DNA of 8,920 bases from IMG/VR virus record IMGVR_UViG_2713896787_000010. One strand, 5' to 3'. Numbering within the stretch: position 1 is the stretch's first letter; the number at the start of each line of letters is the position of its first letter. A program made the position numbers and the translations under genes. The DNA is from a virus. Lineage: Duplodnaviria; Heunggongvirae; Uroviricota; Caudoviricetes. The notes below the pieces were generated by a model that ran no database searches, was not told where the DNA came from, and worked only from the letters and a program-made list of their open reading frames with translations. Shown piece by piece: positions 2,031 to 8,920 of this stretch.

Positions 2031-2882
2031 ATCTCACACCTCCGGAAATCCCCGCTGAAGCCATCATTAATGCGGCATCATCCACCATGACATCCGCCAC
2101 ATCCGCAGACGATAAAATATCGCGCCCTCCGTCCCCACCGAACCGGACGCCTCCGGCAAGTCCTGCCGCTTTCTGCATCAGCATTTTGTCCTCATCCGGC
2201 CTCTCCACCTGCTCTTCCTCATGCCGGGGGACAAGCAGACTGAAATCAGAGGGATGCATATCCGGATCGCAAAAAAACAGGCTGAGTACAGCGTACGTCA
2301 GCCCGGAAAAATGCATATCCAGCTGGGTATCCTGAAAATAATGCGTGCGGTAAAAACGGTGCCAGTCGGCATATTCGGTGGATGTCATCCCGGCAAGCAT
2401 GGCGCGCCAGTCGGGTCTCCCCATCTCACGCGCCAGTCTGAGGGCAAAGTTCAGCTCGCCGTCGAAGACTTTCCCGCAGAAAAATCATCATCAGTCAGCG
2501 TGTTATTTTTCGCCACTTCAGTAATATCAGTATCCGGACGAACAGCTTCGATCATCCCGGACAGGCACAACACCACGTCTTCCGCCCGGGCAATGGCATC
2601 GGCAGGCCAGGTGGTGAGCACTTCCTGCTCTATCTTCATCACGGCCTCATTCATTGACGGTGACTCCGTTTTCTGTGGATGGTTATGCCACAGGGACATC
2701 GCCACCAGAAACGCGCCGGTTCTGACAAGGTCTTCCACGCTCACCTGCAGGTTACCGCTGGCTTCAGCCTGTTCTGCCCGTCGTTTCAGCAGGGCAAGAT
2801 GCTCGATACGCTGCAGCGCAGACAGCTCGGAAAGCGTGACGGACACACCGTTATATTCAAATTGTTCGGTTTTCAGAAACAT
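2011..2882 (-). CDS. T: G-T fusion tail assembly chaperone (gpGT-like), predicted to be made by -1 programmed ribosomal frameshift at the GGGAAAG heptamer near the 3' end of G
   Basis: The -1 frame after the heptamer reads GKVFDGELNFALRLAREMGRPDWRAMLAGMTSTEYADWHRFY..., continuous with ORF 2011..2424; there is no credible independent start or SD for T. The T stop (2011-2013) overlaps the H start (2030). Confidence 0.8.
2451..2882 (-). CDS. G: Tail assembly chaperone G (lambda gpG-like), 143 aa
   Basis: Protein MFLKTEQFEYNGVSVTLSELSALQRIEHLALLKRRAEQAE...AMSLWHNHPQKT... closely resembles lambda gpG; ATG at 2882..2880 preceded by GGAGG; position between V and T/H as in lambda. Confidence 0.9.
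   Translation of the reverse strand: MFLKTEQFEYNGVSVTLSELSALQRIEHLALLKRRAEQAEASGNLQVSVEDLVRTGAFLVAMSLWHNHPQKTESPSMNEAVMKIEQEVLTTWPADAIARAEDVVLCLSGMIEAVRPDTDITEVAKNNTLTDDDFSAGKSSTAS
2469..2475 (-). promoter_or_regulatory. Slippery heptamer G GGA AAG (-1 programmed frameshift site, G into T frame)
   Basis: Minus-strand sequence ...TTT TCT GCG GGA AAG TCT TCG ACG GCG AGC TGA; the heptamer sits 6 codons before the G stop, same heptamer and position as the lambda G-T frameshift. Confidence 0.8.
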
Positions 2883-2895
2883 GTATTACCTCCGT

Positions 2896-3489
2896 TTACC
2901 CTGCAGCGCCCGCTTCAGTAACGGTGACTTNNNNNNNNNNNNNNNNNNNNNNNNNNNNNNNNNNNNNNNNNNNNNNNNNNCCGTCAGGGTGGTTGTTTTC
3001 CCTTTTGCCACCGTACCGGATGTCGGCGTCACCTTAATCGCACTGACCGGCGTAATTTCGCTGCGTTCTTCCGCCACAGAAGGTTTACCCACGTTGGTCA
3101 CTTTCACCGTACGGGTGATCACTTCCTTCGCCGTTACGGCCTTACCGATACTGCTGACCCAGCCACGGAACACATCCACCGTGCCGTTCGGGAAACGGAT
3201 TTTATAGGCCCGCACATCCCCGCTTTCAAACCAGCCTATAAGCCCTTTCTGNNNNNNNNNNNNNNNNNNNNNNNNNNNNNNNNNNNNNNNNNNNNNNNNN
3301 NTCATCATCCAGGTAGTTATCATCGTAGGGTTCTGCCGTCATCTCGCCCGGCGTCAGATCCTTTACCTGTGCCAGTCGCTGCCAGTTATCGTCTGACAAC
3401 GGGTTTGCATAGGCATCACCCTGACCGTTATAAACCCACAGGGTGGTACCGGCACCTTTTACCGGTGCCAGAGGATTTGGTGTTGGCAT
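2896..3489 (-). CDS. V: Major tail tube protein (lambda gpV-like), interrupted by two N-runs (2931-2980, 3252-3301)
   Basis: N-terminus [62 protein letters not shown]; middle piece ...[52 protein letters not shown]...; C-terminal end reads ...[10 protein letters not shown] then TAA at 2898..2896. The two flanks share a frame and the middle piece is in another, so the N-runs are not true-length. Confidence 0.85.
2931..2980. other. Assembly gap / masked run of 50 N inside V (C-terminal Ig-like region)
   Basis: Run of n; the frame changes across it; by comparison with lambda gpV more than 50 nt appears to be missing. Confidence 0.9.
3252..3301. other. Assembly gap / masked run of 50 N inside V (N-terminal domain)
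   Basis: Run of n; the frame changes across it. Confidence 0.9.
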
Positions 3490-3496
3490 ATCGTCC

Positions 3497-3995
3497 TCAC
3501 ATCTCGTATGTAATGGAATAAGTCAAATCAGCAGAACTCCATAACGCCATATCGTCATCACGACGATACTCATAGCCCTGCGTAACCATCGTNNNNNNNN
3601 NNNNNNNNNNNNNNNNNNNNNNNNNNNNNNNNNNNNNNNNNNCATAACGCCATATCGTCATCACGACGATACTCATAGCCCTGCGTAACCATCGTGGTAA
3701 TCAGGCCTGACAGTGCCGGGATCGCACTCATCGCCGGATAAATCCGGCTTTCCATCCACGAATCCAGCTCTGAATCCGGCACCTGAGCAGGCAGGAAAAC
3801 TTCAATATGCAGCTCCGCCTGCCAGGTATCGCTGTCCAGCGCTTCGCCCGTGTATTCAGCGCCGGTGAGATAAACAGCAATTGCCGGAAAATCCGCCTCA
3901 TCAAAAACAGCGGGGCGACCATCAAACAGCGTCGCCCCGTGTTCATGCTGCTCGAGTGCATCCAGCACTGCAGCACGGATATCAGTATGTTTCAT
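3497..3995 (-). CDS. U: Tail terminator / tail tube completion protein (lambda gpU-like); contains N-run 3593-3642 and a flanking 53-bp duplication that is probably an assembly artefact
   Basis: Protein [51 protein letters not shown]...; after the gap the frame continues ...[18 protein letters not shown] then TGA at 3499..3497. Removing the 50 N plus one 53-bp copy leaves 396 nt = 131 aa + stop, the length of lambda gpU. ATG at 3995..3993 overlaps the Z stop (ATGA). Confidence 0.85.
3593..3642. other. Assembly gap of 50 N inside U, flanked by an exact 53-bp direct duplication (3540-3592 = 3643-3695)
   Basis: cataacgccatatcgtcatcacgacgatactcatagccctgcgtaaccatcgt is present on both sides of the N-run; this looks like unmerged overlapping contig ends. 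Confidence 0.85.
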
Positions 3996-4567
3996 CGCTT
4001 TATCACAATCCTTAGTTGTTGTTTCAACGCATAGCCCAGTTCTTTTGGCAGACGTTCTCGCCGGATACGGTTAACGTTCTCATCAAAAGCCTGCTTCAGT
4101 GGGGCCGCCATCGGAATTTTAACCACCTGAATGGGAAGACGATTACGCTTTTTCCTTCCTTTATCGTCATTGCCCTTCGCATACCGGGCTTCTGGCAAAC
4201 GTTGCATAACATGCCAGCGCCCATTATTTAATCGCTGGATGAATGCCCGCTGATAACGATGCTGACCGGCTTTAAGTATGCTGTTCGGACGATGACCAAG
4301 CATCCTGATCCCCAGCTTAATAGCAGGGAGATCACCGCGGTTAACGATAATTCTGGCATTCGGATTTCTGACCGTCGCCCGTTTCAGTCTGGACCGTTCC
4401 TTTACCAGTTTCCGGCTCACCCTGGTCTCCCGGGCAACCTGTGATGAAGACTGATTAATCGCCGTTGTAGCCACGCGGTTAATAGCCATTGCTGAAGCCG
4501 ACGGAATGGCGTTTTTACGAACCCGGCTCAGATTTTCAATCGCCTGATCAAGCCCTTTTATCGCCAT
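3992..4567 (-). CDS. Z: Tail completion protein (lambda gpZ-like), 191 aa
   Basis: MAIKGLDQAIENLSRVRKNAIPSASAMAINRVATTAINQSSSQVARETRVSRKLVKERSRLKRATV...[23 protein letters not shown] is very similar to lambda gpZ; position between FII and U. Confidence 0.9.
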   Translation of the reverse strand: MAIKGLDQAIENLSRVRKNAIPSASAMAINRVATTAINQSSSQVARETRVSRKLVKERSRLKRATVRNPNARIIVNRGDLPAIKLGIRMLGHRPNSILKAGQHRYQRAFIQRLNNGRWHVMQRLPEARYAKGNDDKGRKKRNRLPIQVVKIPMAAPLKQAFDENVNRIRRERLPKELGYALKQQLRIVIKR

Positions 4568-4581
4568 AATTCACCCTGCGT

Positions 4582-4935
4582 TTATCGTCGCCGGTTAACT
4601 GCGGGTGGTTGCCCACGGTTCAGCCAGAGATAACAACTGCCCCCGTCATCCGGAGAAACACGATCCACCCAGAACGTCTCACCATTAATGGTCAACGTGT
4701 CACCACGCCGCACGGCACGAACCGTATCCGTCCGCACAAATAATGACGGGCTGCTTCCTTCAATACGGATCCCACTACTGGCAAACCCCAGCGACTCCGG
4801 ATCGTCAAAAACCCCCTGAACTTCGCTGCCACACTGTGCCCCCGAGGTGAACTGCGCACAGAGCCCCATCACTTCAACGATCGTACTGTCTACCCCGGCG
4901 AGGGCAGCATCAAAGGCATTCTGAAAATCACGCAT
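4582..4935 (-). CDS. FII: Head-tail joining protein (lambda gpFII-like), 117 aa
   Basis: MRDFQNAFDAALAGVDSTIVEVMG...GVFDDPESLGFASSGIRIEGSSPSLFVRTDTVRAVRRGDTLTINGETFWVDRVSPDDGGSCYLWLNRGQPPAVNRRR is near-identical in its C-terminal half to lambda gpFII; start overlaps the FI stop by 8 nt. Confidence 0.9.
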   Translation of the reverse strand: MRDFQNAFDAALAGVDSTIVEVMGLCAQFTSGAQCGSEVQGVFDDPESLGFASSGIRIEGSSPSLFVRTDTVRAVRRGDTLTINGETFWVDRVSPDDGGSCYLWLNRGQPPAVNRRR

Positions 4936-5311
4936 ATTCAGCCGTTCCGTGCTGTATCATGGCCGTTGCCAGTGATGATGGCACCAGAACACGCATACCC
5001 CGTAACGCCAGCTCAACGGGACGACCTGTCTCCGGGCAATACCCCATTACTTGCAGGCACTTCCGTACCCGGACGGCTTTAACATCATCCGGAGCATCCG
5101 TGTTGTTCAACTGCTCACCATCGTCTGTGTGATTTTGATCAGCCCCGCTCTCATCAGAGTGCATAATGCCCTCCGGGGAAACAGCAAGCTCCTCTTCCCA
5201 CTCAGACACACGTTGAGCAATATCCGCAGCACTCCCCGACATATCCGCCTCGCGCCCCAGCAGGCCAGCCAGTTGACGAAGACGATTCAGATTTTCTTCT
5301 TTTGTTGCCAT
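4928..5311 (-). CDS. FI: DNA packaging / head assembly accessory protein (lambda gpFI-like), ~127 aa from the ATG at 5311
   Basis: ORF-track ORF 4928..5359 starts at a GTG inside the upstream hairpin; the ATG at 5311..5309 (MATKEENLNRLRQLAGLL...) has a perfect AGGAGG 5 nt upstream and gives a lambda-FI-like length. Acidic low-complexity centre and conserved C-terminus as in FI. Confidence 0.8.
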   Translation of the reverse strand: MATKEENLNRLRQLAGLLGREADMSGSAADIAQRVSEWEEELAVSPEGIMHSDESGADQNHTDDGEQLNNTDAPDDVKAVRVRKCLQVMGYCPETGRPVELALRGMRVLVPSSLATAMIQHGTAEYA

Positions 5312-5325
5312 CTCAGCCTCCTGTG

Positions 5326-5354
5326 AAAAAAGACACGGGGGCATTTCGCCCCCG
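5326..5354 (-). terminator. Intrinsic-terminator-like element in the E-FI spacer: 7-bp GC stem (5336-5342 / 5348-5354), 5-nt loop, then U-tract
   Basis: Minus-strand RNA: CGGGGGC-GAAAU-GCCCCCG UGUC UUUUUU, immediately followed by the FI Shine-Dalgarno AGGAGG and ATG. No equivalent on the plus strand. Confidence 0.5.
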
Positions 5355-5362
5355 CTCACGGA

Positions 5363-6391
5363 TTATTTCACCTGTACCACCACAAACTCATCCGGGTCCG
5401 GCAACACCATCAGCGGCGCGGACTGCGTCATGGTAAATTCACGGGCGGGATCCCCTACCGTCAGCCAGTGTTTCGGATAACGGGAAGAGGCCACCACACC
5501 TTCGGACAACGCCTGCGCATCCTGAATGGCACCATAGCAACGAATGCCCTCTGCTGCCGTATTCCCCAGGACCAGCGAGCCCTCAGGCAGATAACGTTTT
5601 TCGGTACCGTCCTCTGCCACATAAGACGTTTTTGCCACCACAATGGCCAGATCGCCGTAATACCCTTTGAAGGACACCACCGCGCCCAGGTCTTTCACCG
5701 CTGTTTCGAGTTGCGAATTAGAGCCGCGACGGGTATCCAGTTTTTCGCGGAACAATTTAAAGCCATTCAGCAGACGCCAGACGGTACCGTCCATAATGGC
5801 AATATTCACAAGACCGCTGGCCTGGTCGCAGTAGAGGTCAAGATCATGTGTAGGATCGAACGTGTCACGATCCTGTTTTGACCACTCCTTACCACTACCC
5901 TGAGTGATGTTATTCTTCGTCGACCTGCCAAAATCGACCTCAATTTTCTCGAACTGGTCTCCTTCCATCGTGTATTTGCCATACAGCACGGCATTCACCG
6001 CCTGCATTTCTTCCACCTGGACAATGGCGTGCTCTTCCTGTTTGAGGTTATCAGTGATGATACGCAGACGACGGTAGGCCGGGTCGTTCAGCTGAGCCGG
6101 ATCTTCACCGGGAAGACGCTCAACCGCCTGCTGGTAATTAAATTCGTGTTTCGGCTTGACGTAGCCCGGACGTAACACGCGGGTTTCACCACCACGATGA
6201 CGCAGCACTTTTCCTTCAACAACCGGGGAAACATAGGCCGCCACCGGCGTTTTTCCGGTAATTTTGTCCAGCATCACCTCTTCGGTATGGAAATTCACCG
6301 TACGGCGGAAAAACAGCTCCAGAAACAGCGCACGAAATTTCACTTTTTGTTCGGTATAACCGAGTAACTGGCGGGTCGTAAACAATCCCAT
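5363..6391 (-). CDS. E: Major capsid protein (lambda gpE-like), 342 aa
   Basis: MGLFTTRQLLGYTEQKVKFRALFLELFFRR...PGYVKPKHEFNYQQAVERLPGEDPAQLNDPAYRRLRIITDNL...KLDTRRGSNSQLETAVKDLG...GDPAREFTMTQSAPLMVLPDPDEFVVVQVK is collinear with lambda gpE over its full length; ATG at 6391..6389. Confidence 0.95.
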   Translation of the reverse strand: MGLFTTRQLLGYTEQKVKFRALFLELFFRRTVNFHTEEVMLDKITGKTPVAAYVSPVVEGKVLRHRGGETRVLRPGYVKPKHEFNYQQAVERLPGEDPAQLNDPAYRRLRIITDNLKQEEHAIVQVEEMQAVNAVLYGKYTMEGDQFEKIEVDFGRSTKNNITQGSGKEWSKQDRDTFDPTHDLDLYCDQASGLVNIAIMDGTVWRLLNGFKLFREKLDTRRGSNSQLETAVKDLGAVVSFKGYYGDLAIVVAKTSYVAEDGTEKRYLPEGSLVLGNTAAEGIRCYGAIQDAQALSEGVVASSRYPKHWLTVGDPAREFTMTQSAPLMVLPDPDEFVVVQVK

Positions 6392-6448: not shown

Positions 6449-6796
6449 TTACGGCAGCGCCGCGTGACTCAGGGCACTGCCGGCAAAGGCGTTGGCCTTT
6501 TTGTGTTCATCCACACTTTCAGGCCAGCGGATTGCCTCCGTCGCAAAGGTCCCCGACTTGTAATAGGTCAGCGCCGTCTCTGTGCCTTCAAGCGGCAGTA
6601 CCAGTATGCCAACCGCACTACCGGCTTTTTGTCCGTCCCAGACCACCAGTTTCCCGGTGGCCTCATCCAGCATCAGGGGCGTCAGTGCCGGTGTTGCCGA
6701 GGAAATCCCGCTGCTGCCTGTGGCGGTATGAGCCGGATCATTACCGGCAAAAATACGTATTTCCGCACGCTGTTCAGTGATAGTTTTCGTCACCAT
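6449..6796 (-). CDS. D: Head decoration / capsid stabilisation protein (lambda gpD-like), 115 aa
   Basis: MVTKTITEQRAEIRIFAGNDPAHTATGSSGISSATPALTPLMLDEATGKLVVWDGQKAGSAVGILV...YYKSGTF...AFAGSA matches the gpD family; ATG at 6796 preceded by AGGAGG. Confidence 0.9.
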   Translation of the reverse strand: MVTKTITEQRAEIRIFAGNDPAHTATGSSGISSATPALTPLMLDEATGKLVVWDGQKAGSAVGILVLPLEGTETALTYYKSGTFATEAIRWPESVDEHKKANAFAGSALSHAALP

Positions 6797-6832: not shown

Positions 6833-8338
6833 TCATGGCATGGCCATGAGCATTTTCACGTCCGCATCACCGTCTGCTGACGTCTGTGGCACGCCACCCT
6901 GTACCGCTGCCGGTGAATGGTTCGCCATGATGCGTTCAAACATGGCGGTTGTGGATGCAGAGACCGGTTCTGCCTTACCTGATCCCGCAGCCAGCACAGC
7001 CCGGGCGCTCTCCACAGTCATTCCCGGGCAGGCAGCCAGCTGTTCAGCCTGCGCCTCAGCCCCTTTTGCCTCATCCAGTGCCATGATCTGATCACGGAGT
7101 GAGGGTCCGGCATCCGCCTGCGGTGAAGCAGCCAGGATCGGGCGGGCTTTTTCCACCGTCATCTCCGGCATCGCCGCCAGCGTTGCCGCCAGTTGTTCAC
7201 GACCTTTCGCTTCTTCACACGCCATAATGCGATCGGCTTCACTCTGCGCGGATGCCACCGGCTGCTGTGGTGCCGCCGCGGCCAGAATCGCCCGGGCCTG
7301 TTCAACGCTCATGCCCTGTTGTCCTGCCAGCATCGTGGCAAGCTGTTCACGTCCTTTCGCTTCCTGGCATGTCAGGATCCCCATCACTCGCTGGTTCTCC
7401 TGCGCGGCGGCTTCCGTTGCAGTTAATTGCGGCATAGTGCCTCCTCTGACATTACTGTTCAGCGCCGTGGCCATCACACTGATGGCATCCGACGCATTGA
7501 TTAATTCATCCGCCAGCCCGGCCTCAATGCCGGACTGACCTTCAAAAACGGCGGCCTCTGTTCCCGTGACAGCATCAACAGACAGACCGGTATACATCGC
7601 TACTTTTTCAGCAAACATCCGGCGCGCCGCATCAATGCGCTGTTGCATGTCCTGGCGAACCTCTGCCGGCAACGCTTCAAACTGATTGCCATCCACCTTG
7701 TGCGCCCCTGAGTAAATCAGCGTGATATCAACACCGGCCTGCGCCAGATGACCGGCATAGCTGACATGGCTCATCATCACGCCAATGGAGCCGATACGGG
7801 ATGTCTGGGTAACCAGCCGTCGGGAGCAGGCCGACGCCAGCAGCATGGCTGCAGAGCAGGCCGTGTCATTGCACAGTGCCCAGACCGGCTTCTGCTGACG
7901 GAGGCGGTAAATCATGTCAGCGCAGTCAAACGCGCCGGCGGCCTGCCCGCCCGGACTGTCAATGTCCAGCAGTACGCCCCGCACCTGGCTATCCGCCATT
8001 GCCTGCTGAAGACAGGCGACAATGCCGTCATAGCCTGTCATTCCGGAAAATGGCCGCATACCCCCCAGCCGGTGCACCAGCGTGCCGGTCACCGGCAGTA
8101 CAGCAATACCGTTCACCACCCGGTAAACACGGGCCGGTCGTTTACCTCCGGCCATGTACTCGTCCGTTTCAGCCAGCATTCCGGGAGCATCAAACTGTAC
8201 CTGCTGTTGTGGTACCGAAAGACTTGATGCCCCCATCTCGCGCCCGAGCGCGCAAAAGAAAACCCGCGCATAGGCGGGCTCCAGAAGCAGCGGTTCATTG
8301 AATGCTGCGGCAATAATGTGTGAAAGATTACGTCTCAC
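6833..8338 (-). CDS. C: Head maturation protease / scaffold (lambda gpC-like, S49 ClpP-like peptidase domain with a C-terminal Nu3-like scaffold region), 501 aa from a GTG start
   Basis: N-terminus (M)RRNLSHIIAAAFNEPLLLEPAYARVFFCALG..., GIAVLPVTGTLV, DIDSPGGQAAGAFDCADMI, CSAAMLLASACSRRLVTQTSRIGSIGVMM and ITLIYSGAHKVDGN all parallel lambda gpC. The first in-frame ATG is 35 codons in, so the GTG at 8338..8336 (GGAG about 10 nt upstream) is the likely start. Overlaps the B stop. Confidence 0.9.
   Translation of the reverse strand: MRRNLSHIIAAAFNEPLLLEPAYARVFFCALGREMGASSLSVPQQQVQFDAPGMLAETDEYMAGGKRPARVYRVVNGIAVLPVTGTLVHRLGGMRPFSGMTGYDGIVACLQQAMADSQVRGVLLDIDSPGGQAAGAFDCADMIYRLRQQKPVWALCNDTACSAAMLLASACSRRLVTQTSRIGSIGVMMSHVSYAGHLAQAGVDITLIYSGAHKVDGNQFEALPAEVRQDMQQRIDAARRMFAEKVAMYTGLSVDAVTGTEAAVFEGQSGIEAGLADELINASDAISVMATALNSNVRGGTMPQLTATEAAAQENQRVMGILTCQEAKGREQLATMLAGQQGMSVEQARAILAAAAPQQPVASAQSEADRIMACEEAKGREQLAATLAAMPEMTVEKARPILAASPQADAGPSLRDQIMALDEAKGAEAQAEQLAACPGMTVESARAVLAAGSGKAEPVSASTTAMFERIMANHSPAAVQGGVPQTSADGDADVKMLMAMP
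6935..7390 (-). repeat. Three diverged tandem copies (~144-159 bp, ~50 aa each) of a scaffold motif inside the 3' part of C
   Basis: Protein units: RVMGILTCQEAKGREQLATMLAGQQGMSVEQARAILAAAAP... / RIMACEEAKGREQLAATLAAMPEMTVEKARPILAASP... / QIMALDEAKGAEAQAEQLAACPGMTVESARAVLAAGSG..., followed by a truncated RIMANHSP. DNA: ctgttcacgacctttcgcttc (~7192) and ctgttcacgtcctttcgcttc (~7341) are 149 bp apart, with a third weaker copy near 7040. Confidence 0.6.
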
Positions 8339-8920
8339 GTGGTGTTGTCTCCTCTTCCGGCCTGCGACTCTCCGCTATCTGCTGCTGATACGCCTGCGCT
8401 ATCCACACCGGACGTGAGAGTCCGGCTTTTTGTCGCTCAGCAGATTCCCTGACCTGCTGGCGGAAAATGTCCTGATAATCCTCGCCCATCAGCGCCAGCT
8501 CTTTCTCATACGTGCTCAGTCCGGCCTCAATGCGCATCACTGATTCCTGGACTTCCTTGAGCCCGTCAATGGCCATTCTTCCGGCTCCAATCCACTCAGC
8601 CCGTGACCAGGCTGATCGCGCCTGATAAAAATCAAAACGCGCCCGTGGCGGACGAATAATCCCCCGAAGAAGTGCCTCTTCCAGCCAGCAGGAAAACATC
8701 TGCGTGGCCAGCCGGGACGCAATAAATTTTCGTCGTCCCATAAAATAGCGCCACGACTCATTGGCGGAGGCGCGGGCACTTGAATAACTGACCTTCGAGT
8801 AATCCCGGGACAACTGTTCGTAGGAAACGCCAAGACCGGCGGCGATATACCGCAGCAGCGCCTGTTCAAGCGCCGAAAATCCATTGTCTGAATCCTGCGC
8901 AGTCTGCAGTTTCAGATCAT
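8328..8920 (-). CDS. B: Portal protein (lambda gpB-like), C-terminal ~197 aa; partial, 5' end lies beyond the right edge
   Basis: ORF 8328..8813 reads (L)SRDYSKVSYSSARASANESWRYFMGRRKFIASRLATQMFSCWLEEALLRG...GRMAIDGLKEVQESVMRIEAGLSTYEKE..., matching the lambda portal C-terminal region. The frame stays open upstream to 8920 (...IAAGLGVSYEQ LSRDYS...); the TTG at 8813 is an ORF-finder artefact, not the start. Confidence 0.9.
   Translation of the reverse strand, partial: DLKLQTAQDSDNGFSALEQALLRYIAAGLGVSYEQLSRDYSKVSYSSARASANESWRYFMGRRKFIASRLATQMFSCWLEEALLRGIIRPPRARFDFYQARSAWSRAEWIGAGRMAIDGLKEVQESVMRIEAGLSTYEKELALMGEDYQDIFRQQVRESAERQKAGLSRPVWIAQAYQQQIAESRRPEEETTPRET

Follow-up and report, generated by a model that had tools for sequence, protein, structure and literature searches.

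INTRODUCTION

In P2 (gpO), Mu (gpI/gpZ), and the herpesviruses (UL26/UL26.5), protease and scaffold have a common C-terminal region, and it is through this common region that the protease of such nested pairs is carried into the procapsid. The usual contact between a scaffold and the shell is a small helical element at the scaffold's C terminus, such as the helix-turn-helix of the P22 scaffolding protein. Phage 21 is a normal lambda-like phage, whose head genes were reportedly first described by Smith & Feiss in 1993 (Gene 126:1).

In lambda, Nu3 is the scaffold and C the protease, with a C-terminal part common to Nu3; the scaffold enters procapsids and is then removed by the protease, and yeast two-hybrid assays revealed Nu3-Nu3, Nu3-E, and Nu3-C contacts (PMC3224144). 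Lambda gpC is 439 aa long (NC_001416, C at 4418-5737) and holds, at residues 355-400, one copy of the unit that is the subject of this study. In the GenBank record of the "Bacteriophage 21 head gene operon" (M81255), gene 6 encodes 200 aa labeled "head-tail preconnector gp6" and carries three repeat_region features, the "Tri1 box," "Tri box," and "Tri3 box," annotated "function unknown; putative." The complete phage 21 genome (OL657228) names the corresponding products "capsid protease/scaffolding protein" and "scaffolding protein."

Here, we analyzed a stretch of 8,920 bases (hereafter, the window) that, according to its list of open reading frames, covers the head-to-tail stretch of the late operon of a lambda-like prophage, with its genes on the minus strand. 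A preliminary description of this DNA had pointed to three diverged tandem copies of a motif in the C-terminal part of gene C. Alignments show that, among lambdoid C genes, this one is an allele of the phage 21 type, complete with its nested scaffold gene, and we propose that the triplicated unit is a putative binding module of the scaffold.

RESULTS

Gene C and its nested scaffold gene

Gene C (6833-8338, minus strand; 501 aa, GTG start), the homologue of phage 21 gene 5, encodes a fusion of a head maturation protease and a scaffold region. In the list of open reading frames, it overlaps by 11 nt the end of the portal gene B (8328-8813, minus strand) and is followed by the D/shp decoration gene (6449-6796, minus strand), then by an E-type major capsid gene (5363-6391, minus strand; PF03864 "major capsid protein E," 2.7e-66), beyond which come FI, FII, Z, U, V, G, T, and the start of H. 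The length of 501 aa, noted from the outset as exceeding the ~439 aa of lambda gpC, is correct, and so is the figure for lambda (439 aa). DNA identity to phage 21 gene 5 amounts to 98.7% over equal limits, the two proteins differing at 7 residues besides the start codon.

The product of gene C matches PHROG 53 "head maturation protease" with an E value of 2e-228. An S49 (SppA/ClpP-like) peptidase domain covers residues ~77-293 (7460-8110, minus strand; Pfam PF01343, E = 3.7e-35), and the SppA structures 3rst and 4kwb of the PDB match residues 77-290 (E = 4e-16). In the alignment, Ser162 coincides with Ser166 of lambda gpC, the residue reportedly identified as catalytic by Medina et al. in 2010, and the serine is conserved. 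With this S49 domain and its conserved serine, and with the order B, C, D/Shp, E that is the same in phage 21, lambda, phi80, and Gifsy-1, gene C is assigned to the lambdoid C/Nu3 head protease-scaffold family (PHROG 53). Within that family, two features place it in the phage 21 gp5/gp6 subtype: a scaffold gene that is nested in the 3' third of C and preceded by a ribosome-binding site of its own, recognized at the sequence level, and three Tri boxes in the C-terminal region common to both products.

The nested in-frame gene, a homologue of Nu3 and of phage 21 gene 6, extends over 6833-7435 (minus strand), opens with an ATG at 7435-7433, has its stop in common with C, and encodes 200 aa. A Shine-Dalgarno sequence, AGAGGAGG (7440-7447, minus strand), is located 4 nt upstream of the nested ATG. 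The ribosome-binding site annotated in M81255 falls at the equivalent of 7442-7446, and AGGAGG plus ATG are found at the homologous position of lambda, Met309 of gpC. Counted from this conserved internal start, the scaffold is 131 aa long in lambda versus 200 aa in the window. The in-frame ATG at 7435, the Shine-Dalgarno sequence, and the annotation of phage 21 gene 6 bear out the earlier parallel with lambda, in which the 3' part of C encodes the nested scaffold protein Nu3, and they indicate that the C-terminal 200 aa of C would also be made separately as a scaffold from an internal ribosome-binding site. The array of repeated units, R1 to R3, lies inside this doubly used part of C.

Three tandem units in the scaffold region

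Unit R1 (the Tri1 box; 7265-7399, minus strand) corresponds to residues 314-358, ENQRVMGILTCQEAKGREQLATMLAGQQGMSVEQARAILAAAAPQ; unit R2 (the Tri box; 7118-7240, minus strand) to residues 367-407, EADRIMACEEAKGREQLAATLAAMPEMTVEKARPILAASPQ; and unit R3 (the Tri3 box; 6977-7099, minus strand) to residues 414-454, LRDQIMALDEAKGAEAQAEQLAACPGMTVESARAVLAAGSG. In window coordinates, the boxes of M81255 are located at 7265-7368 (Tri1), 7118-7228 (Tri), and 6974-7087 (Tri3). Residues 455-501 (6836-6976, minus strand) constitute the C-terminal tail of C, which begins with a partial fourth unit, "MFERIMA," and ends with the hydrophobic "...MLMAMP"; an alignment of relatives indicates that F-[DE]-x-[FI]-M and the ending L-[LM]-x-x-P are kept. 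The DNA of "FERIMA" at 6924-6938 repeats the starts of R2 and R3 (repeat family D1, spacings of 156 and 141), and it is inside this partial fourth unit that the left limit (6935) initially set for the array (6935-7390) turned out to lie.

Pairwise local alignments of R1 to R3 reached scores of 83-106 (z = 11.6-16.5) against a null of 2,000 shuffles with a mean of 25, a standard deviation of 5, and a maximum of 54. The BLOSUM autocorrelation of the C-terminal 200 aa of C peaked at lags of 50 and 47, its value at lag 50 being above those of all 500 shuffles, and the PHROG scaffold profiles 8399, 8940, and 17040 each gave three matching stretches in C. The three diverged tandem copies of the preliminary description are thus confirmed, with some corrections: the repeat of ~50 aa is real but consists of a conserved core of 41-45 aa separated by linkers of 6-9 aa, the periods measured are 150 and 141 bp in place of ~149 bp, and the recurring 21-mer is present exactly at 7343-7363 and with one mismatch at 7193-7213, hence twice only, the third copy being too diverged.

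R1 is the positional orthologue of the single unit of lambda, which had been correctly described as single, and the motif "LDRLM" that follows it in the lambda tail is the equivalent of "FERIMA" in the window. The extra length of the window protein had been attributed to the additional copies, and the two extra units do contribute ~100 aa; however, the net gain is only 62 aa because it is offset by the 36-aa linker that lambda alone possesses.

Between copies, identity is 59-68% for nucleotides and 56-65% for amino acids. Tandem Repeats Finder, applied to the whole window, reported nothing in the array region because the copies are too diverged at the DNA level, and the repeat is therefore shown at the protein level. 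Identity between copies is 68-81% at codon positions 1 and 2 but only 38-41% at position 3, a pattern that bears on the alternative that the periodicity reflects sites for a regulatory protein or an RNA structure serving Nu3-type internal initiation. Such an element could be read into the CII pattern TTGYN6TTGY, marked in the complete-genome record of phage 21 at the equivalents of 7183-7196 and 7417-7430, but these CII-like matches occupy non-equivalent positions of the units, no DNA array was reported by Tandem Repeats Finder, and the protein-level repeat is far stronger and recurs in distant taxa whose DNA is unrelated. The codon-position pattern essentially refutes an element acting at the DNA or RNA level, and we hold such an element to be very improbable.

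Neither Pfam nor NCBIfam was found to contain a model for the unit. The HhH DNA-binding motif (PF00633), suggested by the resemblance of the P-G-M-T turn, was rejected, with 13.1 bits versus a cutoff of 24 and an E value of 0.09 for R3 only.

Distribution of the three-unit allele

Counted at a coverage of at least 80%, the three-unit allele is present in 1,866 of 5,426 complete E. coli genomes (34%), genomes with any match having a median of two such places, and a lambda-type one-unit scaffold region is present in 3,201 (59%). These two, the three-unit type and the lambda type, are the common ones among E. coli prophages. Gene C of the window is 100% identical to prophage genes of many complete E. 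coli genomes, e.g., of the STEC O26 type. A protein search with the 200-aa scaffold region matched mostly truncated E. coli fragments. Among deposited phages, the long form occurs in 20 records, including phage 21, ev017, 4A7, and Gifsy-1, and ~90 match no more than one unit, lambda, 434, N15, and HK630 among them; one unit was read in phi80 and in 2B8, and three in Gifsy-1.

These counts leave next to no probability that the three copies arose from an assembly or collapse error or from a recent strain-specific expansion. Nothing was found in favor of such an origin, although short-read assemblies often break inside the gene and yield many partial proteins. Copies that are 59-68% identical preclude mutual mis-assembly, the 1993 phage 21 sequence and its independent resequencing (OL657228) both contain three units, and so do all 80 of the closest IMG/VR contigs (80/80), in addition to the identical gene in many complete genomes. 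Assembly artefact is ruled out by these many independent assemblies, and the earlier view of an old duplication holds, on the strength of the 80 IMG/VR contigs and the 1,866 complete E. coli genomes.

The view of the array as an unusual expansion does not hold, given the Tri boxes of M81255 and the presence of the allele in 34% of complete E. coli genomes. The preliminary description had conceded that the array would be ordinary if lambda and most relatives carried the same three units; lambda carries one, and yet the three-unit allele is common and ordinary. The Tri-box triplication is the phage 21 allele, known and annotated for decades, and is neither unusual nor new.

Other copy numbers also exist. 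A four-unit allele was found in 104 complete genomes, and its R2 to R4 are 78-89% alike, which indicates a recent expansion. Two-unit alleles are rare, forming clusters of 1-3 sequences on short contigs: P0020 is a hybrid in which the front of R1 is joined to the back of R2, and R2 has been lost in P0021 and P0015. By their sequences, the two-unit proteins look like recombination products, and the four-unit alleles and two-unit hybrids together show that the number of units still shifts by recombination.

Age and constraint of the units

R1 units of different phages are 69-81% alike, compared to 47-64% between R1 and R2 or R3 within one protein. The nearest relatives of R2 are its counterparts in Gifsy-1 and Providencia, and those of R3 its counterparts in Trabulsiella and Gifsy-1; in these comparisons with Gifsy-1, Trabulsiella, and Providencia, the same-position match is clear for R1 and less clear for R2 and R3. 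Since same-position units pair across phages, the triplication predates the split of these prophage lineages.

Values of dN/dS range from 0.03 to 0.33 for the units, from 0.10 to 0.16 for the protease domain, and from 0.30 to 0.50 for linkers and tail, the tail alone (0.35-0.45) being looser than the units. Among the units, constraint is tightest on R1 and loosest on R3. Judged by these ratios, purifying selection acts on each of R1, R2, and R3, and because the units are constrained about as much as the protease domain and more than linkers and tail, all three copies are retained as working protein.

This constraint is what has to be weighed against the main alternative, namely, that only R1 works and that R2 and R3 are merely tolerated, replacing the 36-aa disordered linker of lambda with a spacer of similar reach. 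One unit is sufficient in lambda, phi80, and most distant relatives, the window protein lacks the lambda linker, two-unit deletion and hybrid alleles have been found, and constraint is strongest on R1 and weakest on R3. Nevertheless, R2 and R3 keep the module's invariant residues A-K-G-R-E, L-A, P-G-M-T, A, and L-A-A across relatives that are 45-60% identical, and their dN/dS remains at 0.12-0.33 even against Gifsy-1 and Trabulsiella, below that of true linkers. Moreover, positional orthology across genera implies long retention, and the two-unit alleles are, as described above, rare. We consider the spacer unlikely, while granting it some weight.

Occurrence and predicted fold of the unit

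A profile built from 20 units matched 1,030 protein clusters among 1.84 billion representative proteins (E ≤ 0.001). Among the best 150 of these 1,030 matches, 137 have one unit, 10 have two, and 3 have three; because multi-unit proteins score highest, the other 880 are almost certainly single-unit. The matches fall into two size classes, protease fusions of 400-550 aa with the unit near the C terminus and separate scaffolds or called internal open reading frames of 60-230 aa. With one genome taken per species, 28 loci were obtained, of which 5 have three units (Escherichia, Shigella, E. albertii, Trabulsiella, and Providencia), 1 has two (Buttiauxella), and 22 have one, the last including Vibrio, Caulobacter, Rhizobium, Paracoccus, Leptospira, and Desulfarculus. 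Independent duplications outside the enterics are represented by P0136, P0104, and P0226. Of the 28 loci, 24 were searched for an E-type capsid gene (PF03864); it directly follows the unit-bearing gene in 23, and in the remaining one the contig stops too soon, so that every searched locus with enough sequence has it. This profile survey shows the unit to be, as judged from the proteins matched, a conserved and normally single-copy core of C/Nu3-type scaffolds, both within and outside the Proteobacteria.

The AlphaFold model of a single R1 unit has three helices (pLDDT 86), and in the model of the whole scaffold region the helical units (pLDDT 70-80) are connected by low-confidence linkers. The unit is accordingly modeled as a small three-helix bundle, a fold that is predicted. 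Neither in sequence nor in fold did the unit show homology to the solved C-terminal coat-binding helix-turn-helix of the P22 type.

DISCUSSION

Our analysis argues for a reading in which the window gene is of phage 21 type, its array originated by tandem amplification, and each unit acts as one module of a multivalent scaffold. Taken as a whole, we regard this as probably the right explanation. By comparison with relatives, the three copies go back to an ancient tandem amplification among enterobacterial prophages, in one lineage of which they arose, and they have since diverged to ~60% identity. A plausible route, which we infer from the motifs shared by units and tail, would be unequal recombination between a unit start, "R-I-M," and the similar "R-L/I-M" that opens the tail.

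As for function, the units may fold independently as three-helix bundles, strung like beads with flexible linkers between them. Each unit would be a putative protein-binding module that keeps the scaffold inside the assembling shell, along with the protease to which the module is also joined, its partners being further scaffold molecules and/or the E-type capsid protein. With the triplication, each molecule would have three binding modules instead of one, with the capsid unchanged, making both the scaffold and the tethered protease multivalent; the triplicated array would partly replace the long disordered linker of lambda, and the protease would digest the scaffold after assembly, as in lambda. 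The preliminary description had gone further in suggesting that extra copies could alter scaffold stoichiometry or capsid assembly, for which we found no support, the downstream E-type capsid protein being of an ordinary 342 aa and phage 21, a normal lambda-like phage, carrying this very array.

Several observations nevertheless weigh against parts of this mechanism. Because the B-C-D-E head module is conserved as a whole, co-occurrence of the unit with an E gene is confounded as evidence, and the conserved tail could itself be the capsid-binding element, like the C-terminal ends of other scaffolds. Moreover, the extra copies may be dispensable, since a single unit is enough for lambda and variants with two are known, and the boxes carry in GenBank the label "function unknown; putative."

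A more ambitious hypothesis, which we put forward as a long shot, could be that unit copy number, from 1 to 4 in the C genes of E. coli prophages, is a selected and recombination-tunable valency that might set the tightness with which scaffold and protease engage their own E-type capsid protein. If so, such a valency dial might prevent interference between the head-assembly lines of several lambdoid prophages residing in one host, the Tri boxes would serve as a dial of specificity or affinity and not be a frozen accident, and the module of 1,030 clusters would deserve definition as a scaffold-to-capsid adaptor domain.

As a discovery, the array is of little weight, being a standard allele of an E. 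coli prophage head gene. Our study adds modest context to it, namely, the wide single-copy spread of the unit, its predicted three-helix fold, its shifting copy number, and the lack of a curated model in Pfam or NCBIfam. For probing the C-terminal binding of Nu3-type scaffolds, a ready series exists in the natural alleles with one, three, and four units.

Altogether, the locus can be placed among three sets of known systems. Lambda gpC is 53% identical to the window protein overall, and the two have in common the S49 domain, the B-C-D-E order, the nested scaffold, the Shine-Dalgarno sequence plus ATG, the unit, and the type of tail, whereas a 36-aa Ser/Thr/Ala/Gln-rich linker upstream of the unit is present in lambda only and absent from the window protein. 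The C genes of Gifsy-1 (STM2605, "prohead protease; Lambda gpC homolog"), Trabulsiella, and Providencia resemble that of the window in their three units, with equal order and positional orthology, and in the tail motif; they differ by an identity of 56-58% in the scaffold region, by other linker lengths, and, for some of these proteins, by a short extension past the "...MSIP" ending. The closest system is phage 21, whose genes 5 and 6 share with the window the nested gene, the ribosome-binding site, and the three repeats at equal positions, and whose departures are point differences only, three of them in or beside R2 (A364T, A373V, and K378N in phage 21).

Variation in the number of scaffold units

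An allele of the head protease/scaffold gene C with four of the ~40-aa scaffold units was found in Escherichia coli GCA_032727965.1 (L115, positions 1-1043; protein P0028), with units 2 to 4 sharing a mutual identity of 78 to 89%. Of 5426 complete E. coli genomes, 104 carry this allele, which argues that the array is still growing in some lineages. Two-unit variants of C were also found among E. coli fragments (proteins P0020, P0021, and P0015; L116). P0020 joins the front of the first unit, R1, to the back of the second, R2 ("...GMSVEQAR" running directly into "PILAASPQ..."), and R2 is missing from P0021 and P0015; all three look like products of unequal recombination. As every one of these variants comes from short contigs and tiny clusters, some of them could be assembly errors.

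Outside enteric bacteria, two-unit forms of the module occur in representative proteins of unrelated lineages (P0136, P0104, P0226, and P0105), both as protease fusions and as free-standing proteins of scaffold size. These independent versions show that the module has been duplicated in tandem more than once. No Pfam or NCBIfam entry exists for the module, although it matches 1030 clusters. Escherichia phage D2 (OM475427.1) matches gene C, with 96% identity, over window positions 6833-8141 only. In this phage the 5' end of C comes from a different lineage, which would place a mosaic junction within the protease-coding part.

Annotations within the array and in the window

PHROG 1999 ("unknown function", 135 positions) matches C residues 365-501 end to end (window 6836-7244). 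A separate ORF has evidently been called in some phage annotations from the Met within R2 ("IMACEE"); this ORF probably reflects how gene callers handle the nested arrangement. The phage 21 record OL657228 carries "transcription factor CII" binding sites, annotated by the pattern TTGYN6TTGY alone, at positions equivalent to window 7183-7196 and 7417-7430 (plus strand); these predicted sites fall inside the coding array, but on the other strand from gene C, and probably match the pattern by chance.

Genes H, V, and U look interrupted or frameshifted in the ORF list (V as 2886-3323 plus 3226-3489) because the window contains four masked stretches (401-450, 2931-2980, 3252-3301, and 3593-3642), each exactly 50 N long and so not a multiple of 3; gene C is free of all four. 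The conserved -1 frameshift site of lambda G/GT, which serves the tail assembly chaperone, is present as the slippery heptamer GGGAAAG at 2469-2475 (minus strand). It lies close to where the G-like ORF (2451-2882) ends, immediately ahead of the T-like ORF (2011-2424).

Comparison with the lambda Nu3 start

In lambda (NC_001416), a perfect AGGAGG lies 4 nt 5' of the ATG of gpC Met309 (L003 1325-1345; about 5324-5344 of the record), the exact homologue of the phage 21 gene 6 start (compare window 7433-7447). Read from Met309, Nu3 would be 131 aa long, whereas RefSeq nu3 starts at 5132 (Met239), where no Shine-Dalgarno sequence is visible, and encodes 201 aa. Conservation of the Shine-Dalgarno sequence and start site suggests that the real lambda scaffold is the shorter, Met309-initiated product.
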